A stretch of 64,000 nt of DNA from an uncultured delta proteobacterium (GCA_963699755.1 CAVOVB010000007.1:32001-96000), one strand, 5' to 3'. Counted from the stretch's first letter, positions 8,146 through 33,845 are shown. Program-made: numbers and translations. The notes: a model not told the origin generated them from the sequence alone.

Positions 8146-8277
8146 TTACTTCGTCTGGCCTACGACAGTGGGATACCGGTCGTCGAGGTCGTCGCGTGAC
8201 GAGATCTGTTCGGTGATTCCGGTCTCCAACGAATAGGCCCTAATCACGCCACTGTCAGCGTAGACGATGTACTTCTC
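8146..8277 (-). pseudogene. Orphan C-terminal gene fragment cut at box I
   Basis: Open frame EKYIVYADSG...YPTVVGQTK* with no in-frame start; it begins inside box I. Confidence 0.35.
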
Positions 8278-8307
8278 TTAGCCCATCGGAATCAAGAGAA
8301 GCGCCGA
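8274..8307 (+). repeat. Tripartite element copy A, left half (box I plus linker), separated from its core by an IS
   Basis: TCTCTTAGCCCATCG then 14 bp then GCCGA, the same spacing as intact copies B and E. Confidence 0.8.
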
Positions 8308-8343
8308 TGTCAAAACCAGGCGTTGGTGTCCGGTGGTTGTGCC

Positions 8344-9591
8344 GGCGGTCTCAAGCGGTGGACGCAACAGCGTTGAATATCTCGCACGGTTTCATCCATT
8401 GAAGGGTTTGTCGAGGCCGCGCATTGAGCTCCCTTGCGACAGCGTTCAACTCGGTCTGAGTGTGTCGACTCAGATCAGTGGATTTTGGAAAATACTGTCG
8501 TAGCAAACCGTTTGTGTTTTCGTTGCTCCCTCGCTGCCATGGCGCATGCGGGTCGCAGAAGAAGACGCTGACGTTTGTGGCCACCGTGAATTGCGCATGC
8601 CCGGCCATCTCTTTGCCTTGATCCCACGTGAGGGTTTTTCGTAGTTGCGGGGGCAGCTGAATCACCTCACGTGTGAGGGCGCAACGCACCTGCTCGGCAC
8701 GACGCCCATCGGGTAGGCGCACGAGCAGGAGATAACGACTTGTCCGTTCGACCAGCGTCGCGATGGCAGACTTTCCGCCTTTGCCAATGATCAAATCGCC
8801 TTCCCAATGGCCTGGGACGGCACGGTCCTCGGCTTCGGGCGGACGGTCGCTGATCATCACCATGTCGGGCAATTGACCTTGCCGCTCGGTTCGTCGATGA
8901 GGACGCCGTCGAGCACGGCCCGTTCGTAAGCACGTGGTGAGTTCCTTGCGTAACGCGCCTCTGGCTTGGATAAACAGGGATTGATAGATCGTTTCGTGAG
9001 AGATGCGCATGCTGAGGTCCTCGGGATAGTCCAGGACGAGCCGTGCGACTATCTGCTGCGGCGACCAGCGTTGTTCGAGTCGCCTTTCCACCTCTTTTCG
9101 GAGCCTTGGATGGGCTGTGAGCTTGCCCGCCCTGGGACGAAGATTTCGACGTGCGGCGCTTTGCTCCGCAGACCAGGCACGATACGTCGTGCGGCTTCCA
9201 TTCCCAGCGACCTCTCTCGATATGGTCGACGGCGCACGACCAAGGTGGCTCGCTATCTGCCGAAACGAGTCTCCGGCAACCAATCGTCGAGAGATCTCCT
9301 CCCGCTCGGCACACGACAGCCGATGCGGGGAGCGAGGTCGAGGCCTGCGACGGCGTTTAGCCTTGCGACCTCGAGCGAGCAGTCTCTGTATCGACTTTGT
9401 TGAACATCCAATGGCCGCGGCCGCTCTTTCGTACGATTCGCCGGCCCCAAGACGACAGAGTACTTCTTCGTGCTCCGCTCCCGTTAGACGAATGCCTCGT
9501 TTCACTTCTCGACGCTTCATCGCTCAGCCTCCTTGGTGCGATTTTGGCTATCACACCGTCATGGCTGTTGCGTCGATGGCTTGAGACCGCC
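8344..9591 (-). mobile_element. IS30 family element
   Basis: 28-bp terminal IRs GGCGGTCTCAAGC..T.GACGCAACAGC (8344-8371 and 9564-9591); GCC direct repeat at 8341-8343 and 9592-9594. Confidence 0.9.
8351..9520 (-). CDS. IS30 family transposase
   Basis: LGRAPSTISRE, WSPQQI, SHETIY, GHWEGDL, TWDQGKEM, PWQRGSNENTNGLLRQYFPK. Confidence 0.95.
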   Translation of the reverse strand: MKRREVKRGIRLTGAEHEEVLCRLGAGESYERAAAAIGCSTKSIQRLLARGRKAKRRRRPRPRSPHRLSCAEREEISRRLVAGDSFRQIASHLGRAPSTISREVAGNGSRTTYRAWSAEQSAARRNLRPRAGKLTAHPRLRKEVERRLEQRWSPQQIVARLVLDYPEDLSMRISHETIYQSLFIQARGALRKELTTCLRTGRARRRPHRRTERQGQLPDMVMISDRPPEAEDRAVPGHWEGDLIIGKGGKSAIATLVERTSRYLLLVRLPDGRRAEQVRCALTREVIQLPPQLRKTLTWDQGKEMAGHAQFTVATNVSVFFCDPHAPWQRGSNENTNGLLRQYFPKSTDLSRHTQTELNAVARELNARPRQTLQWMKPCEIFNAVASTA

Positions 9592-9760
9592 GCCAGTTAG
9601 AAATGTCCGGCACCGAATGGGGACCATGGGGCAGGGAGCCTGCAGCGGACAGGGCGGCGAGCGGCCTGGAGAACCTGGTGAATCGCGGGGAACGTCACCG
9701 TGGGGCAAGACGGCAGATGGCTTGAGAAGGCGTCGGCAGGCATCGCGCAGGGTCGCCGTT

Positions 9761-11086
9761 CTAAGGACCTGGAGGCGGCAACCGGTCGGCGAAGCGGTCG
9801 CGGACGATGCGCTTTTCACGCTTGGTCTTGGCGGACCGGACGAGCTCTTGCTCCTCTTGTTGTTGCTGCTTGCGAATCTCGGTGAGCGCACCGCTCAAGA
9901 GCTTGTTCTCGACAATCGATCCCTGGGTCACGCAGCCGTCCTTGTGAAAGGGGCGAGCAGCAAGCGGGACGCCGCGGTATCGAATCGATACGCCGCCATC
10001 CTCGTACTCGACGACGGTGACGCACTTCTTGGCCGCGGCTTTGGCCTCCGGGGTCGGCTCGAGCAGGTACATCGTACGCTTGTGGTGCACGGTGAGCTGA
10101 GCCGTCACGCGCCGCTCTTCTTGCCACGTAAAGATGTCGTCGAGACGGTCGCGCTCGAGCAAGGGTCGGTGCGCATCGTGGTTGTTTCGGGCCGGCCGAG
10201 CGAAGCGCCGATTGTAGTCCTCGATGAACTCGGGCAAGTACCGATTGGCGTCGTCCATGGTGCAGATACCCCGCAGCTGAAGCTCCTTGACGAGCCGGTC
10301 TTGAAGCGTTTGATGCGCACGCTCGACCCGGCCTTTGGCGGCTGGGGTATTGGCGCAGATGACGTCGATATTGAGGTCGCTCATGGCGCGGCCAAACTGC
10401 GTGAAGCCGTCGCCGGCCTTGGGGGCCTTGGCATTGACGCGGAACACCGCGGCTTTGTCGCTGTACAACGCCACCGGTTTTCCGTGGCGCTCGAGATAAT
10501 TTCGAGTTGCCTCGAAGTAGCTGAACGCCGATTCCGATTCACACATGTGCAGCTCCATGAGCATGCCGGTGGCGTCGTCCACGTAGACGAGCAGCACGGC
10601 ACGAGGACCACGGTCTTCAAACCAGGGATGGTCGCAACCGTCGATCTGAATGAGCTCGCCGTAGCAATCCCGTCGATGCCGCGGCTGCTGGACACGTTTC
10701 TTTCGCTCGGCGCGGGTCATCCACAGACCTTCGTCGATCATCCATTGGCGCACCGTTTCGACCGACATCGGGAAACCGTGAAGCTCCGTGAGCTTCTCGT
10801 GCGCCAACGTGGGTCCGAAATCCGAGTAGTGGCGTCGGATCATCCCGAGCGCCGTCCCTCGAATCACGTCGTCGTAGCGATTGTTTCCTGGGCTGCCGCG
10901 CTTCTTGGAAGCCAGACCGGCGGCACCGTCGCGCTTGTAGGACGCGTAGAGCCGCTCGATCTGCCGGACGCTTAGCTGCAGGGTCAATGCCGCTTGTCGC
11001 TGCGTCATGCGACGCTCGGCGATTTGCCGCATCACTTCGGCACGCTCGATCTCGCGCCGGCTCATGAGAACGAGCTCCGTATCCAT
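9761..11086 (-). CDS. IS1202-type (ISNCY) DDE transposase
   Basis: MSxREIERxxV, YxDFGPTLAHEKL, GELIQIDGCxH, YSDKxxVF, TQFGRA, AKGRVER. Confidence 0.9.
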   Translation of the reverse strand: MDTELVLMSRREIERAEVMRQIAERRMTQRQAALTLQLSVRQIERLYASYKRDGAAGLASKKRGSPGNNRYDDVIRGTALGMIRRHYSDFGPTLAHEKLTELHGFPMSVETVRQWMIDEGLWMTRAERKKRVQQPRHRRDCYGELIQIDGCDHPWFEDRGPRAVLLVYVDDATGMLMELHMCESESAFSYFEATRNYLERHGKPVALYSDKAAVFRVNAKAPKAGDGFTQFGRAMSDLNIDVICANTPAAKGRVERAHQTLQDRLVKELQLRGICTMDDANRYLPEFIEDYNRRFARPARNNHDAHRPLLERDRLDDIFTWQEERRVTAQLTVHHKRTMYLLEPTPEAKAAAKKCVTVVEYEDGGVSIRYRGVPLAARPFHKDGCVTQGSIVENKLLSGALTEIRKQQQQEEQELVRSAKTKREKRIVRDRFADRLPPPGP

Positions 11087-11150
11087 GGGTGGGGTCTGAA
11101 CCCGACATTTGAATCTGGCACAGACCCGACATTTCTATATTGGCCCTACA

Positions 11151-11216
11151 GCTCAACTGCGCAGAACTAATCGTTATGTCGCGTGGCTGGCGGAGCAGAC
11201 AGCGCGTTTGTTCTTG
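11151..11216 (+). repeat. Tripartite element copy A, right half: dif-like core plus box III
   Basis: GCTCA ACTGCGCAGAA CTAATCG TTATGTCGCGT N18 CGCGTTTG; compare E. coli dif GGTGCGCATAA-N6-TTATGTTAAAT. Confidence 0.8.
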
Positions 11217-11777
11217 CTAGGCTCCGAGCTCGGTCGGCATCTCGATGCGGAGCTCGACCACGTCAGGCCAAGCGGCGTTGTCGGGATCGAAGTAGTGCGT
11301 GGGTCGCTTCACCTTCAGCACTCGGGTTCCGATGTCTCGAGGCACGGTGTGCGCTCCGGGCCAGTCCTTGGCGTAGCGAACTGCCCCCGCTTCGACGGGG
11401 TTACGGATGAGGTAGGCGAGTGCTTCAATCGTGGCCTCGGGGGTCAGAAGAGCATGCTGCCCCGTGCTCCGCTTGTCGAATACCTCACCGGGCCACCCGC
11501 GAAGGGCCTTGGTCGTCAGGGCCAACAGCCGGTGAAACTCCTGCAGAAACCGCGGCAGTACTCCGCGCACGTCGGTTACCACTTCGTGCGAATGGGTGCT
11601 CATCAAGCAGCCCGAGTGCACGAGCACGTCGAAGCGCTGCGCGGCGAGGCCAAGGCAGTACCAGTAGCACTGCTCGAGCTCGCGAGCTTGGTCGGGATTG
11701 AGGAGGAAGTAGCGCCGGGTGGTACGCCGTGAGAGGGCCCAGGTCGTGCCCCGCTCGATGATGCGTTGTCGCGTCAT
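11217..11777 (-). CDS. HUH (Y1) transposase, RAYT/IS200-like, probably 3'-truncated
   Basis: RRxxRRxFLL, CLMSTHSHEV (HUH), YLIRNPVEAG...DWPG; the ORF ends exactly at the box III edge. Confidence 0.75.
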   Translation of the reverse strand: MTRQRIIERGTTWALSRRTTRRYFLLNPDQARELEQCYWYCLGLAAQRFDVLVHSGCLMSTHSHEVVTDVRGVLPRFLQEFHRLLALTTKALRGWPGEVFDKRSTGQHALLTPEATIEALAYLIRNPVEAGAVRYAKDWPGAHTVPRDIGTRVLKVKRPTHYFDPDNAAWPDVVELRIEMPTELGA

Positions 11778-11983
11778 AGCTGCAGGGGGAGCGAAAACCG
11801 TGCCCACAAGCACCGTCACGTTTCCGGGAAGAATTGCCCGATGAGAACACCAACCGCTGGCGGCCCGCCACGATTCGCCGGCGCCCGCAGCTCACGACAA
11901 TACAATGGAATCACCCGAACCTTGCTGCGCTTAGGGCAACGTCGGTCGGATCTTCATCCGGTTGTGCAGCTCGCGTGGCCAGT

Positions 11984-13999
11984 TCATGGACGTGTCACCT
12001 CGAAGATCGGGCTCTCTGCCGTAAAGAGGCGCGTTTCAGCGCTCGCTTCGGAGCGCTCACTCCCATGAAAGAGGACTCGGTAGGTCCCGATCTCCGTCGA
12101 CGGTCGAATCTCCCAGATGACGAGCACCGTAAACGCTTCGGTCGATGTTGGCGGCGGCGGCGCGAACGGATTGAATGGATCGAGAGGTGGGAAGACGCGG
12201 CTTGCTTGGGTCCATCTTGCGCGGGCGAACCAATCGTTCTCCGTGGCGATCGTGCGCCACTCGTCGCCATCGCGCCTCTGAATCTCAATGTACGTCTTGC
12301 GGAGGGCGTTGCCGGGATGGCCGGTCCAAAAAGAGACTGACACCGTGTCACCCTGGGCGTACGAAGCCTGCGGTGCGTCGACGATGTCGCCGAACGATGC
12401 GCCGGCAGGCGGCGCGTCAAAGTCGTTGCCGAGAACCCCCGATGAAACCATTCCGCGAAGGTCGCCTTGGTCAGCCCCATCCGTGACCGCGGTATCCGAC
12501 GCGAGCGCGCGCGACACACGGTCGATTTCCTGCTGATAGGCGGGGAGGGTCCATCTCCCGAAGATCGTATGGCCCCCCTCATACTGCTGGGTATCGTATT
12601 CCTCCGGGGTCGTGATGTACCCCGTGTAGTCGTTCGAGTATGCCGCGATCACAGCGTGCTTGCTTCGGTCACCAAGAACGGCCCGCACGGTGTCGCGCAT
12701 TCGACGGCCCGCCATCGTGGTGATCTCTCCGGGCAAGAACACCAGCGCTAGCTGCCCGATCGTGGCTACGCCGATCGGCGCCGGATCCCGCGATCCCGTG
12801 AACAAGATGGGCTTCGGGGAGTGACACGCGAGCAACGCGTCGCTTGGCGGTGGCGTGCCGAGTGCCGCCTGCACCAACGCGTCGATCCACTCGTCCTGCT
12901 CGACCATGCCCTCCGTGAAAAACGGGTTCCCGCCCCCGTCTTCAGTGGACCCCGCACCGAACGCGTATCCCTGGGCCGCGGGACAAGTCCGCTGAGGGCC
13001 TTCGCCCGTGAAGGCGTCGGAAACCTCGACATCCTCCATATCGACGGCCGTCAGCCGAACATCGATCGGCCCCGAGAGCGGCTCAGAGACGGAGTCGAAG
13101 AGCGCCATCGCCGCGTCGAGCTGCCTCTCTCCGATGATGCGAGCGCTGTCTAGATCATCGGTTCCGGGCCCCGTGTTGTCGAGATTCAAGTTGGATGTCA
13201 CGTCACCGCAGTTGGCGTTGGCGAACGCGGCAACAAACGGTGTTTCCGAACTTTGGGCTAGCCGCCGCTCCATTTCGAGCGCCGCAAACGCTTTGTGATC
13301 GCCCGACACGAACTTGTTGTTGTATGTGAGCGAGGTCGGGTGCACCGCGAACCAGTTGAGCACGCTGACTGCACCGTCCTCCTGGACGAGCTTGAGCAGC
13401 GTCATGTTGCGGTCGGTGTCGTGCTGGTAGCGGGCGCGTTCTTCCTCAGGGTTCTGCATGTAGGCGGGCAGCGAGCGCTGCGCCCCAGCCCCCTCGACTT
13501 CCTGCTCACCGATGAGAATGTGTCCGGGCTTGAGGTTCTGATGTGCCCGATCGATGGCTTCGGTGACCCCCGACACCACCGTGTCAAAGAACTCTTCGCT
13601 AAAGCCGCTTCCGTGCGAATACCCGCCCGGGGCTGAATGCGTGTGCGTCGCGCTCACGATGACGTTGTCGAGCGAATACAGGTCCCCATACTTCGCGCGA
13701 AGGTTGTCCACCACGGACAGCCGAACTTCATGCGAAGAACCCAGCAGCTCGGTGACGACGAACACGAGCCTCCGACTCTGGTCGAGCTCCCCGAAGATGA
13801 ACGCGCGCGCGGTGAGCCGCGTTTGAATCCCGTTGGCAATTTGCGTAGAGCGGACGAAGCCCGATAACTGGAGATCGACGATTGGACCTGTGATGTCCGC
13901 GGCGCCGCTACCGATCAAATAGTTGTCAGCTGGTCCAGACTCGCTCGAGCAGCCCGCCACCGAGAACATGGCCAAGAGCGCCCCCAACGAGAGATACAT
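11984..13999 (-). CDS. Neutral/alkaline ceramidase, probable lipoprotein
   Basis: GxGxADITGP, SATHTHSAPGG, WFAVHPTS, GDVT.N, GExTTMAGRR, YxxQQYEGGHT; lipobox VAGC; start uncertain. Confidence 0.9.
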   Translation of the reverse strand: MYLSLGALLAMFSVAGCSSESGPADNYLIGSGAADITGPIVDLQLSGFVRSTQIANGIQTRLTARAFIFGELDQSRRLVFVVTELLGSSHEVRLSVVDNLRAKYGDLYSLDNVIVSATHTHSAPGGYSHGSGFSEEFFDTVVSGVTEAIDRAHQNLKPGHILIGEQEVEGAGAQRSLPAYMQNPEEERARYQHDTDRNMTLLKLVQEDGAVSVLNWFAVHPTSLTYNNKFVSGDHKAFAALEMERRLAQSSETPFVAAFANANCGDVTSNLNLDNTGPGTDDLDSARIIGERQLDAAMALFDSVSEPLSGPIDVRLTAVDMEDVEVSDAFTGEGPQRTCPAAQGYAFGAGSTEDGGGNPFFTEGMVEQDEWIDALVQAALGTPPPSDALLACHSPKPILFTGSRDPAPIGVATIGQLALVFLPGEITTMAGRRMRDTVRAVLGDRSKHAVIAAYSNDYTGYITTPEEYDTQQYEGGHTIFGRWTLPAYQQEIDRVSRALASDTAVTDGADQGDLRGMVSSGVLGNDFDAPPAGASFGDIVDAPQASYAQGDTVSVSFWTGHPGNALRKTYIEIQRRDGDEWRTIATENDWFARARWTQASRVFPPLDPFNPFAPPPPTSTEAFTVLVIWEIRPSTEIGTYRVLFHGSERSEASAETRLFTAESPIFEVTRP

Positions 14000-14270: not shown

Positions 14271-14361
14271 GCTCTCTTAGCCCATCGGGCTCACGTTGAG
14301 AGCTCAATTGCGCAGAACTAGCTCGTCATGTCGACTTGCAGCGCACTTCGTTTCGCTTTTG
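14271..14361 (+). repeat. Tripartite element copy B (intact)
   Basis: GCTCTCTTAGCCCATCG GGCTCACGTTGAGA GCTCA ATTGCGCAGAA CTAGCTCG TCATGTCGACT N17 CGCTTTTG. Confidence 0.85.
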
Positions 14362-14399
14362 GAGCGCCGAACTGCATTTCCACTCCATCTCGCTGAATC

Positions 14400-15647
14400 T
14401 CACAACTCCCTTTCCTCGCTGGACCGGTCGCGTTCCCGCTTTCGTCGATGTAGAAGGGGAATCGCGCGAGCGTCGCGCTCGGCGGCGCGGCTGGCGAAGA
14501 AATGGCGCCAGGTGCCTGGATGCCAGGTCTTTTGAATCGCCGAGCGTTGGATCGCGAGCTTTCGCTTGAGGGCTCGGGTTTCGATGGTTTGTTGAAACGC
14601 GAGTTGTCGTCGGAGCTGTTTTCGGTCGCGCCCGGCCACGGGTAGTGCGGCGATGACGCTCCGCTGAAGGTGATACTTTCGCTTGAGCTGTTCCCGCCCG
14701 CGAAAGGCAGAGTTGCGATAGCTGCTCCATGCCTCCAGGCGCTGCGTGCGCGCTCGCTCGAGGCTCTGTTCGTACTCCTTCCACAGGCTCTGGGGCGCCC
14801 GAGCCGGCATCGGCGAGTACCGATGGGGCGCTTGGTGTGCGACTTCCCGCTGTCGTTCCGATGCCGGCTGGAACGCTCCGAGCCGTTTGCAGAGCTGCGC
14901 CTTGCTCAACTCTCGAGCCACAAACGAGGCCATCACACGAACGCCGCGCTCTGCATCCTCGAATACCAGCCCGTTGCCGTGTGGCCGAATCGCGACGCCG
15001 TAACGGCCACAGATGGCGTGAACGTCTTCCCAGCTTCGTAGCTCGGTTGTCTCCAAAGCAGGCCGAAGCTTTTCTCGGGCCCAGCGCGCGAAGCTGTCGA
15101 CACCATGGTGGGCTTCGCAATCTGCGGCTCGTTGCGGGACCCTCTCGCGCTCGCGCGCCCTCGACCGAAGGGGCGTCAGGCCGAGCTCCCGCTCGAGGGC
15201 CCGAGCCCCGGTGAAGAGCTCTTGGTGGTCCCAGGCAGGCGAGTGAATCCGAAAGGTCTCTGGATGGATCTTGTTGATCGCGACGTGGATGTGCTCGTGA
15301 TCGGTGTCGCTGTGACGCGCTGCGATGTACTGGTGTTCGGAGAACCCCAGCGTATCCACGAGCCTTTCCACAATCTGCTGAAGCTCTTTTCGTTCGAGGC
15401 TCCGATCATCGGGGTGAAGTGAGATGAGCAAGTGATACGTGCGCTTGCTTCCGGCGCGGGTGTTCTGCGCTTGGATGGCGTCGACGAGCTTGCAGGCGAG
15501 CTCGAGGTCGTCGCGCCCGGTGACGCCGGGAAGGTTCGCTGAGAGGAACCACGTGGCGCGTGGCTCAGCCTCTCGCCCCCGGATGTAGCGCGCCAGGTGC
15601 CGGAACCCGCGGTTCGACATTGATTCCCTTTGATGCCGGACGATCAC
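14400..15647 (-). CDS. Relaxase, MOBP/TraI-like
   Basis: LARYI (motif I Tyr), YHLLISL, HxDTDHEHIHVAINKIHP (3H motif). Confidence 0.9.
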   Translation of the reverse strand: MIVRHQRESMSNRGFRHLARYIRGREAEPRATWFLSANLPGVTGRDDLELACKLVDAIQAQNTRAGSKRTYHLLISLHPDDRSLERKELQQIVERLVDTLGFSEHQYIAARHSDTDHEHIHVAINKIHPETFRIHSPAWDHQELFTGARALERELGLTPLRSRARERERVPQRAADCEAHHGVDSFARWAREKLRPALETTELRSWEDVHAICGRYGVAIRPHGNGLVFEDAERGVRVMASFVARELSKAQLCKRLGAFQPASERQREVAHQAPHRYSPMPARAPQSLWKEYEQSLERARTQRLEAWSSYRNSAFRGREQLKRKYHLQRSVIAALPVAGRDRKQLRRQLAFQQTIETRALKRKLAIQRSAIQKTWHPGTWRHFFASRAAERDARAIPLLHRRKRERDRSSEEREL

Positions 15648-15991
15648 CGCTGCCCTGCCAGACGATTCACCGCGCGGCGGACGTCCATGACCGAATCAAT
15701 CAGCTCGAGGTTCAGTCGATGAGAAGTCGACCGGTCCGAAACGCCGTCACGAGTGGCGAACTTGAGTAGCCCACCGATGCGGCTGAGGTTGGCATGGACC
15801 CGGGAGACTTCTATGAGTGCTTGAGCGTCGATCGTGCTCTTCAAGCGCGCGCCTCGGAGACAGGAGCGGATGACCGCGCCGCGGGAGCAGCTGGTCTGGT
15901 GAGCCAGCGCATCCAGGCGAGCAAGATCATCTTCGTCGATCCGAACCGAGATCACATGGGACTTTGGCTTGCAGGCGCGACTGCCCGTCAC
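15644..15991 (-). CDS. mobC: MobC/TraJ-like relaxosome accessory protein (ribbon-helix-helix)
   Basis: ISVR...LSRIGGLLK pattern; 4-bp overlap with the relaxase. Confidence 0.75.
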   Translation of the reverse strand: MTGSRACKPKSHVISVRIDEDDLARLDALAHQTSCSRGAVIRSCLRGARLKSTIDAQALIEVSRVHANLSRIGGLLKFATRDGVSDRSTSHRLNLELIDSVMDVRRAVNRLAGQR

Positions 15992-16374
15992 TTCGTGGGC
16001 CCCTTCCCTTCGGAGAGGTCGCGGTTGCGTGCCACAGCCTCGGGTGCGCCGGCGGCGTGTGGCTTCGCTGAGAGCGTGAGAGCCAAGCTCGCAAGCTCCA
16101 TCGCCCGACGCACGGAAAACTCAGGTGGTGCGTCTTGCAGACGCTGCGCCAACTGAACGAGCTCGCACTGCAACGTGAGCGCAGCGAACTCCCGCAGTGC
16201 TTCGATCGGAACGTCGTCTCCGTCCGCGGCCCGCAGCACGAGCCCCCGAGCCGCCTTCCGAAGCTCCTCCACTCCTACGATTTGCGAGTGCGCAGCCGGG
16301 ACACCGTGTCCCAAAAGGGTCGTTTGGTGGCTTTTTCCGACGTCTGCTGACCCTTCTTTCTCGAACAAATTCAA
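15988..16374 (-). CDS. Hypothetical protein of the mobilizable element
   Basis: ORF overlaps the mobC start by 4 bp; no recognised motif. Confidence 0.4.
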   Translation of the reverse strand: MNLFEKEGSADVGKSHQTTLLGHGVPAAHSQIVGVEELRKAARGLVLRAADGDDVPIEALREFAALTLQCELVQLAQRLQDAPPEFSVRRAMELASLALTLSAKPHAAGAPEAVARNRDLSEGKGPTK

Positions 16375-16400
16375 TGATCCCGAAGGCTCGGTGTCGGCTA

Positions 16401-16451
16401 AGGATCTAGTGAGGTATCACCCGTGGAGGTTCGAGTCCTCTCTTCCGCACC
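16401..16451 (+). other. 3' half of a tRNA-Leu (att site remnant), not a full tRNA
   Basis: Partial anticodon arm, long variable arm, T-arm GGAGG-TTCGAGT-CCTCT, acceptor strand CTTCCGC-A-CC; no 5' half upstream. Confidence 0.8.
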
Positions 16452-16479
16452 GAGTCCTCTGTAAACGCTGCGCGCGTAT

Positions 16480-16720
16480 CTACGAGGACATCGAACCGAC
16501 GGTGTACTCGCCCCGCTCGGGAAGCTGGGCCACGATGGCGTCCATTTTGTCAGGTATCAGCGTCACCGTCTCGCGCTTCCCCTTCGGATGCGCCGTACCG
16601 GTAGCGCGTCTCGGAATCCTCGGAATCGCTGGTTTGGTGCCCAACAGCTTCTGCTCGAGCATCCAGTCGAACAGTCGATTCAACGCGCTCGGACCACGAT
16701 GAGGACCGGGCAAGACATGG
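16480..16720 (-). pseudogene. Possible tyrosine-integrase fragment
   Basis: SALNRLFDWM...P...LxxxxMDAIVAQLP resembles a core-binding/catalytic domain junction; lies next to the tRNA att; no catalytic motifs retained. Confidence 0.4.
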
Positions 16721-16824
16721 GATCGTATCACATCGAAGATGTCCCCAATCCCCGCATGCCGCGCTCAACGCCTTCGGCTTATTCGCTGCGGGGGCCTAGA
16801 CTCCCCGCTGAGCTCGTCGCGCGG

Positions 16825-20282: not shown

Positions 20283-20312
20283 GACCGCGTTTGTTTGCGG
20301 TTCTCATTAGCC
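20283..20312 (+). repeat. Degenerate box III-box I junction (copy G)
   Basis: GACCGCGTTTGTTTGCGGTTCTCATTAGCC vs copy E flank GACCGCGTTTGTTTTCCGGCCTCCTAGCC; also overlaps a possible terminator hairpin. Confidence 0.5.
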
Positions 20313-24416: not shown

Positions 24417-24621
24417 GTTCGATTCCGGCCCAACTGAGCTCTAGACGTATTCCGTTGAGACCTGTGGCTTCAACGGACAAGATGCCCGAGGAGACTGCTA
24501 ATCGTACGGAGTGCCGTGCGCAAGTGCCTCGAGGCCGATGGCCGCAGGCATCGCGATCGGTAGCCTCGCCCCTGCTAGGTTGGGCCGTGCAGTGCCAGGC
24601 GGGCACCGAAGAGGCCATCTC

Positions 24622-25223
24622 ATGAACGACAAGATCTTTCACAGCTCGCTCACCCGGACTACTGATTTCGAACGTGCTGGCTTCGACCGGCGACCATTGC
24701 CACGGGAGCAGTGGGAGGCGGGAGACTACGTCGTTGCCACCGCCACGATTCGGCGGGGCGGTCTCTCGGGTGTTGAGCTGACGACTGGTCGAATGGTCGA
24801 GGCCGTCAATCGCGACATGGTGCTAGGCGCGCTCGGAGTACGTCTCGCCACACTCGAGGCCGTCGGCTCCTGGGAGGCCATGAGCGCCGATGGGCGTATG
24901 CATCTCCTCAGTGGGGGGCCTCCTCGGCCGACTCACCTCCGTGTCCCGCATGCTCGCATCGCCGATGCGGATCGACTACGCCCGCCATGCAATGCGCAAT
25001 GGCACGAAAGTCCGGATGCAGGATTTTGCGCGAGCTCCGACAAAGGCACAACACTATGGAGCTCCGACAATCGTCATCGTTGGGACGTCCATGTCCGCGG
25101 GCAGACGACCTCTGCAAAAGTCATCGTTCGACAACTCAAACGTGCGGGCCATCGCGTCGTGGGCACGAAACTGAGCGGCGCAGGCCGCTTGAGGGACATC
25201 CTCGCAATGAAAGACGCGGGAGC
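24622..25223 (+). pseudogene. DUF1611-like P-loop protein, frameshifted and cut at box I
   Basis: Reassembled frames give ...GTSMSAG(K)TT...KLSGAGRLRDILAMKDAGA, stopping at GCTCTCTTAG. Confidence 0.65.
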
Positions 25224-25252
25224 TCTCTTAGCCCATCGAGCTCAAGCTGAGC
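25222..25252 (+). repeat. Tripartite element copy D (box I plus linker only)
   Basis: GCTCTCTTAGCCCATCG AGCTCAAGCTGAGC; no core follows. Confidence 0.75.
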
Positions 25253-25589
25253 AATGCGATCATCACCGGCCAAAGCCCGGCCATCAGGGCCGCGGCACCA
25301 ATCAAGGTGTAGCTCCTGGTCTTGCGGGGTTAAGTCATCGATGTGTGGTTCGCACGCAGCCTCGGGAGAGTTCAAGCGTACCCGAAAGACGCAAGTGCTG
25401 CCGGGGAAGCAGAGCGAAGGGGGCGGGCGGGCGGGCGGTGCAACCAAGACCTGCAAAGGCCCGGTCCAAAGACCGCGCATTTCGAGCCGTCGGCAACGCA
25501 CGTAAGGATCCGAGCTCTGTCCGCTTGGTCGCCTTCGCGATCATCGCGACGGACGAAGTCTTGAGGAACGACTGGGGCATCATGCAGTG

Positions 25590-25760
25590 CTGGGCGGAAC
25601 CAATTTACGGGCAAGGCTCGAGCCGCGAGCAGGTCGCCCTCACACCGCGGTTCCTCGGCCTCTCGGTCGTCATCATGAACAGCCTCGCTCCCATCCACTG
25701 GCAGAACCTCGTCAACTTCGGCGTGGTGCCGCTCGACTTCATCGACGACGCGGAGCTGAC
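25590..25760 (+). pseudogene. Aconitase swivel-domain fragment
   Basis: YGQGSSREQVALTPRFLG...IHWQNLVNFGVVPLDF. Confidence 0.75.
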
Positions 25761-26015
25761 GGAAAGCCCCTCCGCCTCCAACACAGGCTGTCTCGCCGCC
25801 AGCGCGAAGCATGCTCGAGGGCGGGCTCATCCCTTGGCTTCGCGCGCGCCTTCGAGACCAAGCTTGGAGTCCCTTGCTTCCGCTTTCGGCCCTAAACCGA
25901 CACGATGCTCGTTAGGGCAGGAACGCCACGGGGCGCTGCTGAAAACCGGTTGCAGTGGCCGAGCTCTTGCGGGATCATGAGAGCCTAATACGGGCCGTTC
26001 GTCAGGAGGTTTGCC

Positions 26016-27293
26016 ATGATGCCACGCGTATCGGGTGTGCTCTTAGTTGCGGCTACGGTCGCATTCGTTTCGGGGTTGGTCCTGGCGCAGGCGGCGCCCA
26101 AGCAGGTCGTCAAGCCGCCGATCGCCAAAGCCTGGATCGACGTCGCAACCTTCTCCGGTATGGGGATGGGTGGCGCGGACATGATGAACCAGACGCTTGG
26201 CGCTGCCATGGGTGGTGGGCGAGGTGGCAAGGCCGAGTTCGGCTACACCGAACATGGGCCAGGTGGTCGGTGGATGGACGTGACCCTCTACACCAGCGGC
26301 AACGCCAAACTGACCGAGGCCTTGCAGAAGGTGCCGGCGGCCACCGGTCTCGCGCCGACGCTCAAGCTCCAGACGCCGGAGAAACCCAAACCCGCCCCGA
26401 AGTCCGATGACGAGCCTGCGGAATGGGACTACCAGAAGCCCAAGGGCAAGCTCGTGATGTACTGGGGCTGCTCCAAAACCGTCAGGCCCGGCCAACCCAA
26501 GGTCGTGGACCTCGGCACCGCCACAGTCCGCGACATGGCGAAGTTCTTCGAGTCGCGTCGGGCCACCCAGCGTGGTGCGCATGCAGCCGCGGGCCGGCCG
26601 ATTTGGCCGAGCCGCCAAGACAAGCGCGCGCTCGGGGAACGTGCGTCGATCGCTGGCGAGCACGCGTTCGTTGCCGCGGGCGTTCCCGAGAGCCTCAAGT
26701 TCACGATCCCTGCTGCGCAAGACATCATGGCGCCCATGGAGGTTCAGCAGAGCGACGCCGGCAGCGCGCTTGCGTTTGAGTGGCAGGCAGTGCCTCATAC
26801 GCGTGCATACTTCCTCGGAACCATGGGCCCGTTGCCCGGCGGCAAGGAGGGGATGGTGATCTGGACCTCGAGTGAGCTCCCCGAGAGCGGGTTTGGGTTG
26901 TTCGACTACCAGACCAACGTCGCGGTGGACACCTGGCTCAAGGACAAGGTGCTGCTGCCACCATCGACGACCCGGTGCGCGGTGCCGAAGGAGGCCGCCG
27001 GCGAGGGCAGCATGTTGCGCGCGATCGCCTATGGCACGGAGCTCGATCTGGCGTACCCGCCCCGGCCGAAGGACCCGAAGATCGCTTGGGAGCCCGAATG
27101 GAGAGTGCAGATCCGGGTGAAGTCGATGAGTACGAGCATCGTAGGCATGGAGGGAATGGGCAACATGCCGTCAATAGACGAAGAGCTGCCGGACACAGAG
27201 GATACAGGGGCCCCACCGCCCGAGTCCGAGCCCGGAAAGAACAAACGAAAGAGATTCAATCCCTTCGATGCGGCGAAGCAGAGCCGGCCCTGA
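26016..27293 (+). CDS. Secreted hypothetical protein
   Basis: Signal peptide (VLAQA), AGGAGG RBS, strong GC3 bias, YWGC motif. Confidence 0.8.
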   Translation: MMPRVSGVLLVAATVAFVSGLVLAQAAPKQVVKPPIAKAWIDVATFSGMGMGGADMMNQTLGAAMGGGRGGKAEFGYTEHGPGGRWMDVTLYTSGNAKLTEALQKVPAATGLAPTLKLQTPEKPKPAPKSDDEPAEWDYQKPKGKLVMYWGCSKTVRPGQPKVVDLGTATVRDMAKFFESRRATQRGAHAAAGRPIWPSRQDKRALGERASIAGEHAFVAAGVPESLKFTIPAAQDIMAPMEVQQSDAGSALAFEWQAVPHTRAYFLGTMGPLPGGKEGMVIWTSSELPESGFGLFDYQTNVAVDTWLKDKVLLPPSTTRCAVPKEAAGEGSMLRAIAYGTELDLAYPPRPKDPKIAWEPEWRVQIRVKSMSTSIVGMEGMGNMPSIDEELPDTEDTGAPPPESEPGKNKRKRFNPFDAAKQSRP

Positions 27294-27373: not shown

Positions 27374-27432
27374 GGTCAACTGCGCAGAAGTAGACCTCAT
27401 GTCGACTTGCGGAGCACCCGAGACCGCCTTTG
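27374..27432 (+). repeat. Tripartite element copy C (core plus box III)
   Basis: GGTCA ACTGCGCAGAA GTAGACC TCATGTCGACT N17 CGCCTTTG. Confidence 0.8.
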
Positions 27433-27496
27433 TCTCCCGTATTCGCGGTCCGAATCGCGTGGTACGCCTTATCCGTCTACTTTCGATGTCCGGGAA

Positions 27497-27513
27497 GCTC
27501 TCTTAGCCCATCG
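27497..27513 (+). repeat. Tripartite element copy F (box I only)
   Basis: GCTCTCTTAGCCCATCG, identical to copies B and D over 17 bp. Confidence 0.8.
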
Positions 27514-28430
27514 CTGCTGCGACCACAGACATTTGCAAGACTCTGTTCGCAACAGCGGCACCGCTGTAATCAAGAGATCAAATCGCCCTCTGGCTGCCTC
27601 CGGAACCCGAGCTAGCTCGGACCACCCGAGTGTCCCAGACACGGAGCTATGCCGCAGCTCCTCCGAAGCCGTCGTAGCTACGACCATCGCATCCGAGAGA
27701 TTGTCTGCCAGACAGGGAACCCAGCGATCTTTCAGCACCTTCGCACCGAGCGGCAGACCGCCATCATTCGGCTTGTGGTAGTGCTCCTCAAGCTCTCGGG
27801 GTTTCGCGTCGATCAACAGCGCCTGCCTGACGGGACAGCCAAGGCCAGAGTCTGGGTGCGGTCGACCGCGGCCAAGCTCGTCCGGCAGCGTGGTTGGCGA
27901 CGACCGCGTCGCCGCGTGCACCCTGAAAAGCCAATGACCGGCATTCGCGTGACGCATCCGAACGAGTATTGGCATATCGACCTGACGGTGATCCGACTTG
28001 TCGATGACACGAAATGCTACCTGCATGTCGTCATCGACAAGTTCTCGCGCCGGATCTTGTCGTGGCGCCTTGTGAGACGGCTCGCGCCCACGACGAGATG
28101 CGAAATCCAAAAGCAGGCTGGGAAGCCTCTGCTCGAGAGCCTCACTCAGCCTGGGCAGCTAATCGATTTCTACGTCAAAGAGCGCAACACCCAAATGCCG
28201 CATCACGCCTTCGTCAGATAAACGCCGGACGAGGTGTACTTCGACCAAGCGAATCGAGTCCTGGACTGCCTCACGACGGCCTGGCGCCATGCTCGTCGGA
28301 CAAATGAAAGCAACCCGAGATCAGCCCTGTCGCATGTGCGGACCGCCTGCCGCTCACCAATCCGTGAGTGTTATCCACGCCGTCGCAAATGCGCCGCCGT
28401 GATTCCAGAATGCTCCCGAACGCAGCAGCA
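27513..28430 (+). mobile_element. Decayed IS with rve/DDE transposase remnant (about 27649-28300)
   Basis: PNEYWHIDLT...YLHVVIDKFSRRILSW...YN-like/PH; imperfect IRs GCTGCTGCG-N8-CATT at both ends. Confidence 0.55.
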
Positions 28431-28941: not shown

Positions 28942-28996
28942 GCCGCCGCTTTGGAGACGAGCTGGCCCTTCTTGGCGGGCCGCGCAGGCACGTCAC

Positions 28997-31660
28997 GTGA
29001 TGGCAGGGACACATGGGTTGCGAGTGAAACGGATTGGATTCGAAAATGCGTCGATCGTGCTGCTTGGGGCAATCGCCCTCGTTGCAGGCGCACCGGTGCG
29101 GGCACAGGAAGCAGACGCTGGAGTCGATCTGGAAGCGAGCGCCGACGCGGACGCTGGAGCCGAAGCCTCCACGGACCTCCACCCTCCCCACCTCCTCGAG
29201 GCTCCACCTCCGCGATACCCTGCCGGTCGAGAGGAACAGGGGCTCCATCCGACCGTGATCCTTCGCATTACGGTCACCGCAACCGGAGCGGTGACCGACA
29301 TCGTCGTCGAGCACTCGGCGGGGACGGAGTTCGACGCGGAGGCGGTGCGCGCCGTGAAGGGATGGACATTCGAGCCGGCAACGCGGGGTGACGTGCCCGT
29401 ATCCAGCCGAGTACGGGTCGCCGTCCATTTCGAGCCGACATCCGCGAGAGTGCCACACGAGGGCGAGACCCACGAGCCCCAACAAGCTCCGCACGTGGTG
29501 GATACCCCGCCCTCACCGAACGTTCCTGCAGCTGTCTCCCCTGCCACCGCTGCTGAAGAGGAGCCGAAACCAAAGGCTGGATTCAGCACCACGGCCGAGG
29601 TCGATCCTGAGAAGCTTCGGGCCCAAGACCGAGGCGCCGCGGACTTCACGATCGACCGCAAGGTACTAGACGCCGCGCCGGCCCAGACCGCCAATGATCT
29701 ACTTGCCCGAGCGCCCGGCCTCTACGTCGCCAACGTCGAAGGTGACGCGGCCGGCGGCTTCCTCTATCTGCGCGGTTTCGACTCGGAGCACGGCCAGGAC
29801 ATCGAGCTCAAGCTGGGCGATGTTCCCCTGAATCAGCCCTCGAACATTCATGGGCAAGGCTACGCCTACATCAACTTCATCGTGCCCGAAGCCGTACGCG
29901 AGCTACGCGTGATCGAAGGCGTGTACGACCCGGAGCAGGGTGATTTCGCCGTCGCCGGCACTGTCAAGTTCGACATGGGCGTCGAGCAGCGCGGGGTCTA
30001 CGCCAAGAGCGAGTTCGGCTCGTTCAAGACATTTCGACAGGTCGCGATCTTCGCACCCAAGGGCAAGGACCCGGACACCTTCGGCGCCTTTCAGCTCCGA
30101 CGCTCCGATGGATTCGGGCAGAACCGCGATGGCCTCGACGGCTCGGCGATGTTCCAAATTGGCTTCGGCAAAGAGGAGTGGCGCCACCGGGTCCACGGAG
30201 CCTTCTGGGGCGCGCGCTACAACTCGGCTGGCGTACTTCGAGCCGACGACATTGCCGACGGGACCGTCGGCTTCTACGACGTCTACCCCTACCCGACCGC
30301 GCGCGCGCAAAACACGTTCAACGCGGGCGGCATCCTCGGCGTCCACGGCGAGCACCGTGGCGAAAACCGCAAGAACACCAGCTACGACGTCTACGTCCAG
30401 CTCCTCGATTTTCGCATCCAGCAGAACTTCACCGGTTTTCTCCAGACCTCACGCGCATCTCCGAACTTCTTCGGCCGCGGCGATCTCATCGAGCAGCGCG
30501 ACCGCCGCATCGTGCTCGGCGGGAAGGCCCGGCACCGCACCGCACGCTTTGAGCCTTCCGAGTACGCCAAGGGCACCATCGAGATAGGCACCTCGGCGCG
30601 CGTCGACCTCATCAATCCACAGCAGCAGAACCTTCTCGAGGCCCCGGCAAACCAAACCTGGGATGAGCGCGTCGACGCCAACATCGTGCAGGCCGACATC
30701 GGGCTCTTCGTCGACCTCGACTGGGACTTCAGCAAATACTTCAACCTCAAGGGCGGGGTTCGTGCCGATGTATTGTTCTTCGACATCGACAGCAGGCTCG
30801 GCAACCGCATTCCGGCGTTCCGACCTGAAAACTTCATCCAGGGCTTTCGGCGAACGGCAGCCGGCATCGTCGCGGGCCCACGCCTCGCAGCGACCGGCAA
30901 GCCCACCGAATGGTTCGACATCATCGCGTCCTACGGCGAGGGGTTCCGCTCGCCGCAGGCACGCACGCTGAGCGACAGCGAAATCGCCCCGTTCAGTAAA
31001 GTGCGCTCCGTCGACTTCGGGGTTCGTTTCCGGCTCTTCCCCGAGGAGCAGCTCAAGCTCACGCTGACCGGCTACCGAACCTGGCTCGACAACGACGTAT
31101 TCTTCGAAGCGGCAGAGGGCCGGCTCGAGAACATCGGACCCACGAGCCGCACCGGCTTCGTCTTCTATGCGACCACCAATCCGTTGCCCTGGCTCGTCGG
31201 TGCGCTCTCGGTCACCTACGTGAACGCCGTTCTCGAAGGCCCGCCCCCACCCACGGTCGAGAACCCAACGCCTCCCTTCGATGAGGGCGACCTGCTTCCG
31301 TTCGTCCCGCCGTGGGTGATTCGGCTCGACGTCGGCGCCGGTGACGATCTCGTCGACCTTTGGAAGTATCCGCTGCACGGCCACATCGGGCTCGGCTACA
31401 CCTACCTCGGGTCCAGGTCTCTCCCGTTCGGTCAGTTCGCCGAACCGTTTTCGCTCGTGGACCTCTCCGCTCGCCTGTCCTGGTGGTTCCTCGAGCTGGG
31501 CTTCCAGGTCTTCAACCTCGCCGACAACCAGTACGCGGGCAACGAGTTCGTCTTCGTCTCGGACTGGGACCCGGCGTCCCCTCCTTCACGGGTGCCGGCG
31601 CGCCACCTCAGTGCAGGCCGGCCACGCACGTTCTTTTTCACGCTGGGGATTCGCCTATGA
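28997..31660 (+). CDS. TonB-dependent receptor with N-terminal TonB_C domain
   Basis: Signal peptide; PxYP...G.V....V..S....FD..A..AV..W.FEPA TonB_C; plug LRGFDSEHGQD...HGQGYA; C-terminal beta-strand. Confidence 0.9.
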   Translation: MMAGTHGLRVKRIGFENASIVLLGAIALVAGAPVRAQEADAGVDLEASADADAGAEASTDLHPPHLLEAPPPRYPAGREEQGLHPTVILRITVTATGAVTDIVVEHSAGTEFDAEAVRAVKGWTFEPATRGDVPVSSRVRVAVHFEPTSARVPHEGETHEPQQAPHVVDTPPSPNVPAAVSPATAAEEEPKPKAGFSTTAEVDPEKLRAQDRGAADFTIDRKVLDAAPAQTANDLLARAPGLYVANVEGDAAGGFLYLRGFDSEHGQDIELKLGDVPLNQPSNIHGQGYAYINFIVPEAVRELRVIEGVYDPEQGDFAVAGTVKFDMGVEQRGVYAKSEFGSFKTFRQVAIFAPKGKDPDTFGAFQLRRSDGFGQNRDGLDGSAMFQIGFGKEEWRHRVHGAFWGARYNSAGVLRADDIADGTVGFYDVYPYPTARAQNTFNAGGILGVHGEHRGENRKNTSYDVYVQLLDFRIQQNFTGFLQTSRASPNFFGRGDLIEQRDRRIVLGGKARHRTARFEPSEYAKGTIEIGTSARVDLINPQQQNLLEAPANQTWDERVDANIVQADIGLFVDLDWDFSKYFNLKGGVRADVLFFDIDSRLGNRIPAFRPENFIQGFRRTAAGIVAGPRLAATGKPTEWFDIIASYGEGFRSPQARTLSDSEIAPFSKVRSVDFGVRFRLFPEEQLKLTLTGYRTWLDNDVFFEAAEGRLENIGPTSRTGFVFYATTNPLPWLVGALSVTYVNAVLEGPPPPTVENPTPPFDEGDLLPFVPPWVIRLDVGAGDDLVDLWKYPLHGHIGLGYTYLGSRSLPFGQFAEPFSLVDLSARLSWWFLELGFQVFNLADNQYAGNEFVFVSDWDPASPPSRVPARHLSAGRPRTFFFTLGIRL

Positions 31661-32466
31661 CGCGGTTCCTCCCGCTCGCCGTGCTCGTGCTCCTCGTCGC
31701 CTGCGGTCAAACCCAAGGCGCCTTCGTCGAGATCCCCTTTGAAGGCGCTGGAACCACGCCCGAGACGTTCACCAAAGACGGCTGGGAGGTCACGCTCACG
31801 CAGGCGACGCTGGGCTTCGGCCCGATCTACTTCTGTGCCACCGACAGCCAGTCGCCGGAACGCTGCGGGGTGGCGATTGCCGAGTATCTCGAAGGCACGA
31901 CGCTCGACGGGCTCGACCCGGCACCCCAACCGATCGGACTCATCGAGGGCACCACTGGAATCGTCCGTTCGACTTTTTTCGACTACGGCATCGTGTGGCT
32001 CCTGACGAGTCCCGTGCCCGAAGCCCTCGAGGGCGTGCCTGGTGGACCCGCGGTGGTGCGCTCGGAAAGCGCGAGCTACGTGCCTTTTGGCCACTCCGCC
32101 CAGTTCGCGGGCTCCGCAACCTGCGTGGCGGACCCGGCCACTTGCTGCCCGGACGCGTCGGTGTGCCCCGCAGCGTACGCGTTCGAAGCCAACGTCGACG
32201 TCCTGGCCCTCAACCGTGGCACACCCACGGTGTTCGGCGTTGAGACGTTTGAAGAGATCACGACCGACCCGCGCATCCTGACGATCACGTTCAATCCGAA
32301 CGCCTGGTGGCAAACAGTCGACTTCGGGCGCCTCGCGGCGCTCGACGACGGCACCGGGAACGTGCTCGTGACGCAGGACGACCCCGACTACAGCGCGCTG
32401 GTCATCGCGATGACCCTCAACGAGCTTCCCACCTTCACGTGGACCACCACGGAGGGGGCAGATTGA
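31657..32466 (+). CDS. Lipoprotein of the TBDR operon
   Basis: Start MTRFLPLAVLVLLVAC (lipobox) overlapping the TBDR stop (ATGA). Confidence 0.8.
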   Translation: MTRFLPLAVLVLLVACGQTQGAFVEIPFEGAGTTPETFTKDGWEVTLTQATLGFGPIYFCATDSQSPERCGVAIAEYLEGTTLDGLDPAPQPIGLIEGTTGIVRSTFFDYGIVWLLTSPVPEALEGVPGGPAVVRSESASYVPFGHSAQFAGSATCVADPATCCPDASVCPAAYAFEANVDVLALNRGTPTVFGVETFEEITTDPRILTITFNPNAWWQTVDFGRLAALDDGTGNVLVTQDDPDYSALVIAMTLNELPTFTWTTTEGAD

Positions 32467-32495
32467 CAAACCGATAAAGGCGAACGGAGAACAAG

Positions 32496-33410
32496 ATGAA
32501 CACTGCACGAACGAAAATGATCCTCATCGCGATCGCCTCGGCTGCCCTCGCAGCGGGCTGTGGCGACGACGGCGGCGGCGGCAACGGAGGAGGCGGTGAC
32601 GGCAACCTATCCGTCGTCTTGGGAGCAGAGGACACCATCCCGGAAGGGCTCGATGGCACTGACGCGTGCGAAGACGAGTGCATCGAAGATGGCTACAGCG
32701 TGACGTTCGATCGCTACATCGTCGCCGTGGGCTTCGTCGACATGAATCAGGTTGGAGGCGCCAACCCGCAGAGCAGCCCCGACGTCGGCGTCGCGGACTT
32801 CACGAGCCTGCCTTCCACACTACCCGAGCTGACCGCCTTCAACGGCATTCCGACTGGGCAGTACACGGAGTTTGGATTCGAAACGCCGGCCCCCGAAGCA
32901 GGCGTGACCAACATCAACTCGGTGGCCCAGGACGACATCGATGCCATGGTGGAAAACGGCTGGAGCTATATCATCGACGGGACCCTCACCCGAGAGTCGG
33001 ACGGCGAGACGATCGACTTCTTGATCGAAGCCAACTCGCCGGCCGTCTACACCGACTGCGCGCTCGAAACCGAGCCGGAGCCCGGCGTCCCAGTCACGAC
33101 CAACTCGAGCGCCGAGGTCACCATCCACGGCGACCATGTCTTCTTCAACGGGTTCCCCGAAGACGAGACCCAGATTCAGCGGCTCGCCGGTTGGATGTGG
33201 ACGGTTGGTGAAGAACGGGACACGGACGGCGAGATCACTCGGGCGGACTTCGAGGCCGCAACGAACATCGCGAAGCTCTTTCCGGCCCCGACCTACGTGC
33301 TAGCCGGCAGCCCTCTAGAGATCAACAACGCGTGGGACTTCGTCCGCGCCCAGCTCGGCACCCAGGGTCACATCTTCGGTGAGGGCGAATGCGAATGGAG
33401 CCCACTTTAG
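32496..33410 (+). CDS. Acidic lipoprotein of the TBDR operon
   Basis: LAAGC lipobox, Gly-rich linker, TIHGDH.FF and GH...EG.C motifs. Confidence 0.8.
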   Translation: MNTARTKMILIAIASAALAAGCGDDGGGGNGGGGDGNLSVVLGAEDTIPEGLDGTDACEDECIEDGYSVTFDRYIVAVGFVDMNQVGGANPQSSPDVGVADFTSLPSTLPELTAFNGIPTGQYTEFGFETPAPEAGVTNINSVAQDDIDAMVENGWSYIIDGTLTRESDGETIDFLIEANSPAVYTDCALETEPEPGVPVTTNSSAEVTIHGDHVFFNGFPEDETQIQRLAGWMWTVGEERDTDGEITRADFEAATNIAKLFPAPTYVLAGSPLEINNAWDFVRAQLGTQGHIFGEGECEWSPL

Positions 33411-33413
33411 CCC

Positions 33414-33729
33414 ATGAGCGTGCTTGCGTTGTCCCTGCTGCTCGCTGTCTGCGCCCTCGGCGCGGGCCTCGTGGGATGGCTGACCGGCATGGGTGGAGGG
33501 GTGATCATCGTGCCGCTCATCGTTCTGAGTCTTCACATGGACATTCGCTATGCGATCGGCGCCTCCCTCGTATCGGTGATCGGCACCTCGTCCGGTGCCG
33601 CCGCGACTTAGGTCAAGGAGGGATTCACCAATCTTCGCCTTGGAATGCTGCTCGAGGTGGCAACGACGCTTGGCGCCGTGGGTGGAGCGTTCGTCGCCGC
33701 TCGACTATCGGCCTCTGCCATTGGGAGCG
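33414..33729 (+). pseudogene. TSUP (TauE/SafE) transporter, 5' part only
   Basis: G..G..TG.GGGVIIVP, AIGASLVSVI.TSSG; in-frame TAG at 33609; truncated at the copy E edge. Confidence 0.8.
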
Positions 33730-33845
33730 TAAGAGCAAGGGCCCTCTCCGCGCGGTTCCCCACGCGACATAGCAAGCTAGTGCCCCGAAATTCGGCTCTC
33801 CACATGAGCCCGATGGGCTAGGAGGCCGGAAAACAAACGCGGTCT
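33729..33845 (-). repeat. Tripartite element copy E (intact, inverted, with an extra box III before box I)
   Basis: Minus strand: AGACCGCGTTTGTTTTCCGGCCTCCTAGCCCATCG GGCTCATGTGGAGA GCCGA ATTTCGGGGCA CTAGCTTG CTATGTCGCGT N18 GGCCCTTGCTCTTAC. Confidence 0.8.

Follow-up and report, generated by a model that had tools for sequence, protein, structure and literature searches.

Are the short repeats that punctuate a gene-mosaic island of an uncultured delta proteobacterium sites of Xer recombination, and how would they have come to lie between its genes? The question is raised by a 64-kb stretch of DNA (the window; CAVOVB010000007.1:32001-96000 of GCA_963699755.1, here C7:32001-96000) from the 5.35-Mb, 11-contig genome of an SG8-38-type Polyangiales (completeness 100, contamination 9.04). 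A sequence-only reading had described seven loci, A to G, sharing a non-coding unit in which a dif-like core lies between two conserved boxes, I and III. It took them for XerCD-type sites with accessory boxes, acting as joints of a cassette-like array. We consider it likely that an ISCR transposon plants host-type Xer sites and that host XerC and XerD recombine them into arrays.

The repeat is real, and every sequence string quoted for it was found where it had been placed, but only B and E are whole within the window. Of 40 seed candidates, 13 were discarded by eye as chance, and the profile made from the other 27 recovered six of eight window pieces at E≤0.01 (A left, A right, B, C, D and E), missing F and G. 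No convincing copy occurs elsewhere in the window, in line with the sequence-only reading, but the same search of the whole genome gave 55 matches: 34 full units, 9 left halves and 12 right halves. Nor does the array start at 8.2 kb; seven more matches lie upstream on the contig, at C7 11–31 kb, headed by an ISCR-type transposase gene (C7:9488-10891). Even scatter through the genome, named beforehand as a sign against a shuffling system, was not seen. The matches are strongly clumped, falling into 12 clusters that cover 244 kb, with a median nearest-neighbour distance of 3.2 kb, whereas 1000 random placements gave a mean of 36 kb and never less than 15 kb. The best E in the reversed genome was 0.073. 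A scan for the core that ignored the boxes found 33 genome matches, with box I in its expected place in 27, an insertion sequence (IS) end replacing box I in two more, and box III in place in 31; the reversed control gave two matches, both lacking both boxes. The boxes are truly tied to the core. No predicted gene of this genome contains a whole site. The core pattern was present in 24 of 27 other genomes of the genus and in none of 33 genomes from the family's other genera. Among the matches listed, the repeat turned up in records labelled Polyangiales, Myxococcales or Deltaproteobacteria, including one SG8_38, and in a single 3-kb contig of a Gemmatimonadales bin.

What are the boxes? The unit is the final ∼105 bp of a rolling-circle transposon of the ISCR/IS91 type: box III corresponds to the ISCR oriIS end, box I to the left edge of a fragment, and a Xer-type site lies between. 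The transposase is of the HUH Y2 type, like those of ISCR and IS91, and is 41% identical to those of ISCR1 and ISCR2. In the parent copy the core lies ∼150 bp past the stop codon, as seen at three of the four ISCR genes of this genome that have a 3′ end. In metagenome contigs, some perhaps redundant, a site follows 43 of 53 ISCR genes (41 usable right flanks, forming 36 groups). Right flanks matched ISCR2- or ISCR3-type plasmid ends at ≥18 of 28 bases in 53 of 131 sites, against none of 130 control windows, and the oriIS match began 11 bp past the XerD arm in 100 of the 131. We presume these right ends to be oriIS from the 232-bp ISCR1 region and the oriIS motif. Passages of PMC6218425 give 232 bp for the ISCR1 oriIS region, and the oriIS-type end here lies ∼225 bp past the stop. 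Both outer edges of the unit are sharp. On the right it extends ∼10 bp past box III, which had been thought to end it, to CTAT plus four fixed bases, and unrelated DNA follows. On the left, 19 sites have a flank with a homologue that continues without the site, often in mid-gene and usually after a GC derived from the target. A match to a known IS end, held in advance to speak against a Xer system, was found for the boxes and not for the core.

Since both boxes are transposon ends, they are not accessory sites of the cer type. We regard as highly improbable the original view that these are cer- or psi-type sites at which proteins bound to boxes I and III license Xer recombination. The 7–8-bp spacers do resemble those of cer as given in passages of PMC5357621, and box I is highly conserved, with a short inverted repeat, although its conservation figures in the set of 123 sites used below are inflated, the search pattern having contained box I. 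Yet conservation stops 37 bp from the core, versus ∼180 bp of XerC-side accessory DNA with ArgR/ArcA and PepA sites for cer, box III is oriIS, and box I is wholly different between genera and half-length in a basal member of the genus. No ArgR-family gene was found; PepA and ArcA were not searched for. The basal copy (L202, genome G022) has a 6-bp spacer, arms nearly identical to dif and a box I region ∼20 bp shorter; the form with 7–8-bp spacers looks derived.

Precedents exist for the movement of such fragments. One-ended transposition of fixed right-end fragments is described in passages on IS801 (PMC3189936), where it occurs without target duplication, and on IS91 (PMC13181058). By the same route the transposase would move the ∼105-bp right-end fragment, from the box I edge to oriIS, and would drop Xer sites beside or inside arbitrary genes. 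In G154, a Polyangiales genome from another genus, there are 19 exact 100-bp units and a split target. The ISCR-type transposase was found in only 6 of 18 other genomes of the genus, whose assemblies are incomplete; with the transposase so seldom found, many arrays may be orphans.

The core stood up as XerCD-type, its arms being close to host dif. As candidate host dif we take an intergenic 28-mer with a 6-bp spacer at C3:687011, conserved in 44 of 61 family genomes and single-copy in 39. Comparison of the core with the host's own dif, suggested at the outset, was to have used GC skew to place the terminus; the skew is too weak, so the identity of dif rests on conservation and single copy. Among 123 distinct sites the arms are mostly ATT(G/T)CGCGGTA and TTATGTCG(C/A)(G/C)T, with spacers of seven bases in 81 and eight in 42, and 52 kinds of spacer in all; none of the 33 core matches in the genome has a 6-bp spacer. 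The common alleles are identical to the dif candidate at 8–11 of 11 positions in the XerC-type arm and 7–9 of 11 in the XerD-type arm.

Mobile elements also treat sites and dif alike. One IS1202 subgroup puts its left end 5–6 bp from XerC arms, according to a part of 10.1101/2022.12.17.520857. Of six distinct IS1202-type left ends here, five (four at sites and one at dif) are spaced exactly 5 bp from a XerC-type arm, and the sixth adjoins another IS end. Public contigs from two studies carry an IS1202-type insertion at the site C7:22216, which is uninterrupted in this genome. IS1202-like left ends were also noted 5 bp from the dif of several Polyangiales genera (L230, L246, L228, L172 and L173). 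IS1202 targeting of Xer sites is thereby extended to Myxococcota. Separately, an IS110-family element with IS1111-type ends and subterminal repeats was observed at the same spacer point in four sites (C7:29651-31155, C7:425600, C1:432718 and C1:391019; L024, L025, L029 and L027), a candidate RNA-guided element aimed at the Xer-type site. Three near-identical IS30 copies (window 8340-9595, C7:17139-18305 and C11:76381-77547) were noted, at least two of them inside IS1202-type ends at sites, so IS30 may target or ride in the IS1202-type element.

The association of Xer sites with ISCR ends is not confined to the genus. We scored 35 ISCR loci, of which 14 had a dif-like site (≥12 bits) within 330 bp past the stop, against none of 35 controls; three of the 14 were added after their sites had been seen. 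In all 14 the XerC arm faces the transposase gene. The unbiased count outside the genus is 8 of 20 ISCR loci, in five families. ISCR-plus-Xer ends thus occur in five other Polyangiales families, with a large array once, and in other genera the ISCR-linked arms follow their own host's dif variant. In our model the Polyangiales ISCR/IS91-type transposon carries a host-type Xer site just inside oriIS with the XerC arm towards its transposase gene. G154 has 18 such sites besides dif, in near-identical 100-bp units that include a head-to-tail dimer; 13 lie within 30 kb behind an ISCR gene, 12 of them direct. In G154 the XerC-arm edge of the site was also seen to be occupied by a 2.5-kb element that encodes both an integron-like tyrosine recombinase and an IS91-type transposase (L280-L284, e.g. 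L282:3408-5905); five of six left halves run into it, and its other end provides a XerC-like arm. In other Myxococcota none of 20 loci passed the Polyangiales dif matrix, which is possibly wrong for those hosts; in four ISCR loci there (L305, L306, L312 and L313) the dif-like arm is of another kind and on the opposite strand. A single origin of Xer-bearing ISCR ends was considered and is unsupported, with seven changes needed on a 38-row tree; four of the labels were assigned by eye, and 'none' could stand for a decayed site.

Do the sites recombine? We compared flanks after collapsing identical copies, which left the 123 distinct sites. No pair shared both flanks; 29 shared the left only and 71 the right only, counts of non-independent pairs in which the 29 come from nine ISCR-linked sites and most of the 71 from relaxase-linked ones. 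Over 194 distinct sites, excess association between columns 11–20 and 21–35 bp apart was 0.049 and 0.027 on the left side and 0.052 and 0.036 on the right, and across the core −0.016 (5 pairs) and 0.000 (60 pairs). Spacer bases 4–6 associate with the right side, and left halves are unlinked to the distal spacer. This linkage suggests a crossover in about the first three spacer bases, between partners that need not share spacers; none of the 29 left-sharing pairs has the same spacer. Such an early crossover fits XerC-only exchange, described for cer and VGJ in passages of PMC5357621. In the array of genome G061, six sites have one left half and two right-half types, and the modules between them include a relaxase fragment and a 9-bp piece. 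In G154, two flanks that adjoin each other in an empty repeat now border two different sites 0.8 Mb apart, with a one-base overlap; because the target occurs in more than one copy, two independent insertions could also explain this, and either way flanks were exchanged. From these comparisons recombination at the core is well supported, and with it the earlier proposal that the sites are joints between gene modules, the crossover mapping to the core. Alignments ending at sites were set aside as unusable, the sites having been masked.

The flank data also bear on a reading in which the units are plain ISCR scars, spread by one-ended transposition, with cargo captured from oriIS to oriIS and hybrid sites made by homologous recombination or conversion within the conserved core, so that Xer may do no more than bind. 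The unit is an ISCR end, the miniature right-end fragments of IS801 noted above do transpose, two-oriIS capture has been described for ISCR28 (as cited in a passage of PMC12772301), and no excision joint was seen in contigs of four public runs. But oriIS-to-oriIS capture predicts a joint at the outer end, whereas right halves stay with their right flanks and linkage breaks in the core. Box I is conserved like the core, yet the left middle remains linked to the XerC arm, and the arms track each host's dif. We think this explanation unlikely.

Which enzyme would act? The need for a recombinase from outside the window, already recognised from the sequence, was upheld. XerD passes its curated cut-off and FtsK is present; no third Xer-like recombinase was found in 41 genomes of the genus, and the integron integrase cut-off was reached by none of the 7 of 22 recombinase matches scanned. 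Host XerCD would be the simplest agent. It is very doubtful that a tyrosine recombinase encoded by an element acts on the sites in place of host XerCD, even with island integrases near most clusters, a Xer- or integron-like recombinase gene adjoining such sites in three other genera, and the recombinase-plus-IS91 element of G154 at the XerC-arm edge in five copies. That recombinase has no close relative in the 41 genomes, where its best matches are the two Xer genes; the island integrases sit at tRNA or tmRNA genes; and one IS1202 type marks both sites and dif.

Besides the non-independence of the site pairs, several points weigh against transposon planting followed by host Xer exchange. The GC preference at the left junction and the lack of a target motif at the right are not the IS91 pattern, and contiguous original flanks were seen for none of the 131 genus sites, so the transposition step was not caught in the act. 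Fixed differences separate the arms from dif (the XerC arm has GGT where dif has AGA, the XerD arm CG in place of AA) and could weaken Xer binding, and the XerC-like gene scores just below its curated cut-off (324 versus 335). The absence of a clean site-to-site excision joint from the four public runs, in a search that required long sides and left short hybrids uncounted, counts here too. Direct-repeat sites persist, so excision must be rare, and part of 10.1101/2024.04.09.588662 reports that Acinetobacter sites do not excise fragments. The fixed differences from dif might slow recombination and so spare direct sites. As to the junctions, the target motif of IS801 and IS91 is at oriIS, while here GC is at the left edge, which leaves the polarity either way; no target tetranucleotide of the kind known for IS91, IS801 and IS1294 was found beside oriIS, where the bases past the right end are unconserved.

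How would arrays form? After transposon planting, host XerC and XerD would recombine sites at the spacer start, even between unlike spacers, most simply by a single XerC strand exchange completed by replication or repair. DNA between direct sites would exit as a one-site circle and re-enter at another site, giving head-to-tail arrays. Neighbouring sites are direct in 31 of 41 cases in this genome and 46 of 64 at other loci (some of which overlap); behind an ISCR gene, the ISCR strand carries 16 of 18 further sites. A 41-kb unit on C7 opens with an integrase and the ISCR gene, continues with direct sites and their cargo, and closes with relaxase, MobC and an integrase remnant; the same head and tail recur in G061 and L044. 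Of seven close relaxase copies, five, including two duplicates, have their end at a site, and four clusters are at or near tRNA genes with integrases. The genus arrays would thus often reside in an integrative mobilisable island with an ISCR gene and integrase at its head and MobC and relaxase at its tail, where IS1202- and IS110-type elements would use the sites as targets. Cargo is varied and lies in both orientations, operons and gene fragments included, and the cargo seen here comprises metabolic and transport genes. PADLOC defence models matched none of 67 cargo proteins, and there were no resistance genes among the Pfam matches. An identical relaxase module plus site occurs at C1:1583-1589 kb and C7:430-436 kb, one of them at a contig end, reflecting either recent duplication or an assembly or contamination artefact. 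At L047:4386-4995, a 610-bp piece that contains a tRNA-Leu gene and terminal parts of two integrase genes has box I edges on both sides.

Within the window, locus A is split by an IS1202-type insertion sequence (8308..11150, minus strand; TGT ends; transposase 9761-11086; NF033594, 479 bits against a cut-off of 250), whose left end is exactly 5 bp from the XerC-type arm. The left half (8274..8307, plus strand) is box I and 19 bp, stopping 5 bases into the stretch before that arm. The right half (11151..11224, plus) has a 5-bp flank, XerC-type arm (11156-11166), 7-bp spacer, XerD-type arm (11174-11184) and oriIS-type end. The two halves do flank the element, as had been noted, but they probably derive from two different source sites because their 5-bp flanks differ (GCCGA and GCTCA). 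An IS30-family element with inverted repeats (8340..9595, minus; transposase 8351-9520) is nested in the right end of the IS1202-type element. The module between A and B (11217..13999, minus) holds a transposase-like gene of HUH Y1 type (11217-11777) and a neutral ceramidase gene (11984-13999). The former was assigned to Y1 from an HxH motif recognised by eye, its product matching no Pfam or NCBIfam model; a second window copy is at 37356-37706, and several of 11 genome matches adjoin sites. Locus B (14273..14364, plus) is a whole unit with box I, XerC-type arm (14307-14317), 8-bp spacer and XerD-type arm (14326-14336), and its right end is a decayed oriIS type of the relaxase-linked kind. The backbone of the array tail follows (14400..16795, minus; NF041893, 304 bits against a cut-off of 250): a MOB-P relaxase gene (14400-15620) ending beside B, a MobC-like gene (15644-15955), a small open reading frame (15988-16272) and an island integrase remnant (16393-16795).

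Locus G (20283..20312, plus), counted earlier as a copy of the unit, is instead left over from the non-coding region at the ISCR 3′ end; its box I is decayed, it has no core, and the profile missed it. Locus D (25224..25252, plus) is a left part alone, box I plus 13 bp. Locus C (27374..27435, plus) is a right half without box I, having a XerC-type arm from 27379, a 7-bp spacer, a XerD-type arm and a relaxase-type right end; locus F (27499..27513, plus), also missed by the profile, is box I alone. Locus E (33725..33825, minus) is a whole inverted unit whose oriIS-type end adjoins a truncated TauE/SafE gene, and the ISCR 3′-end remnant preceding it (33826..33976, minus) includes the final codons of the transposase gene, at 83% over 66 bp. 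Gene fragments between sites include a C-terminal piece of aconitase, a piece of an integrase-core transposase and the broken TauE/SafE gene (24511-25980, 27649-28221 and 33414-33611). Three cargo proteins of 425, 269 and 297 residues (26016-27293 and 31657-33410) had no Pfam, NCBIfam or PADLOC match; the latter two come after a TonB-dependent receptor gene. Outside the array, 46092-51680 carries carotenoid genes (phytoene synthase, desaturases and lycopene cyclase) near catalase-peroxidase, Fur and photolyase-related genes, an ordinary light and oxidative-stress region. The window had no Rfam match, and no sigma-70 promoter lay within the sites in 5.2 kb containing four of them.

How does this compare with known systems? 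In four ISCR1/2/3-type ends examined no Xer site was found, unlike here, where one lies 11 bp inside oriIS; tens of arrayed fragments per genome and the lack of an oriIS-side tetranucleotide also set the system apart from ISCR/IS91. The dif modules of Acinetobacter (pdif sites and xrs cassettes, including those in chromosomal islands) are alike in that many Xer sites part one- to few-gene modules in linear arrays (passages of PMC12907356 and PMC13141974), and IS1202-family elements target both. In pdif systems, however, spacers are 6 bp long, successive sites face opposite ways and exchange calls for spacers that are identical or nearly so (passages of PMC13141974), C and D modules alternating; here 7–8-bp spacers are unlike, neighbours are mostly direct, and each site is wrapped in transposon ends. 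Integrons share direct-repeat sites, one site per circular cassette, a fixed array head and IS1111-type targeting, but here there is no IntI, cargo genes point either way, operons and fragments are included, and no attC-like hairpins occur (folding of 10 strands was not above shuffles, z +1.3 to −1.6). XerC-side exchange with little spacer homology likens the system to cer and to VGJ-type integrative mobile elements exploiting Xer (passages of PMC5357621), from which it differs in that the chromosomal dif is not the target, islands are many, long accessory DNA is lacking and no DUF3653 activator gene was found. The parts are each known already; we did not find the joined system described, with the proviso that subscription papers (the ISCR28 paper and IS91 reviews) and supplements could hold a description.

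A wider reading is possible, though we stop a little short of calling it probable. Transposon-planted Xer sites would make cassettes of any DNA, and host XerC would move these with 2–3 bases of homology; as an analogue of integrons this would be a general, island-spread gene-capture platform of Polyangiales and a route to dif-module systems. For dif modules there is no explanation of how DNA first gets between two Xer sites, and the ISCR-end system links that step to ISCR movement, for which, according to passages of PMC6218425, there was no experimental proof as of 2018. The system offers small substrates for both: a 105-bp unit, a transposase and two host recombinases. Were this borne out, the system would be a further kind of cassette shuffling besides integrons and pdif, built on direct-repeat sites whose spacers differ and at work throughout an order of environmental bacteria.

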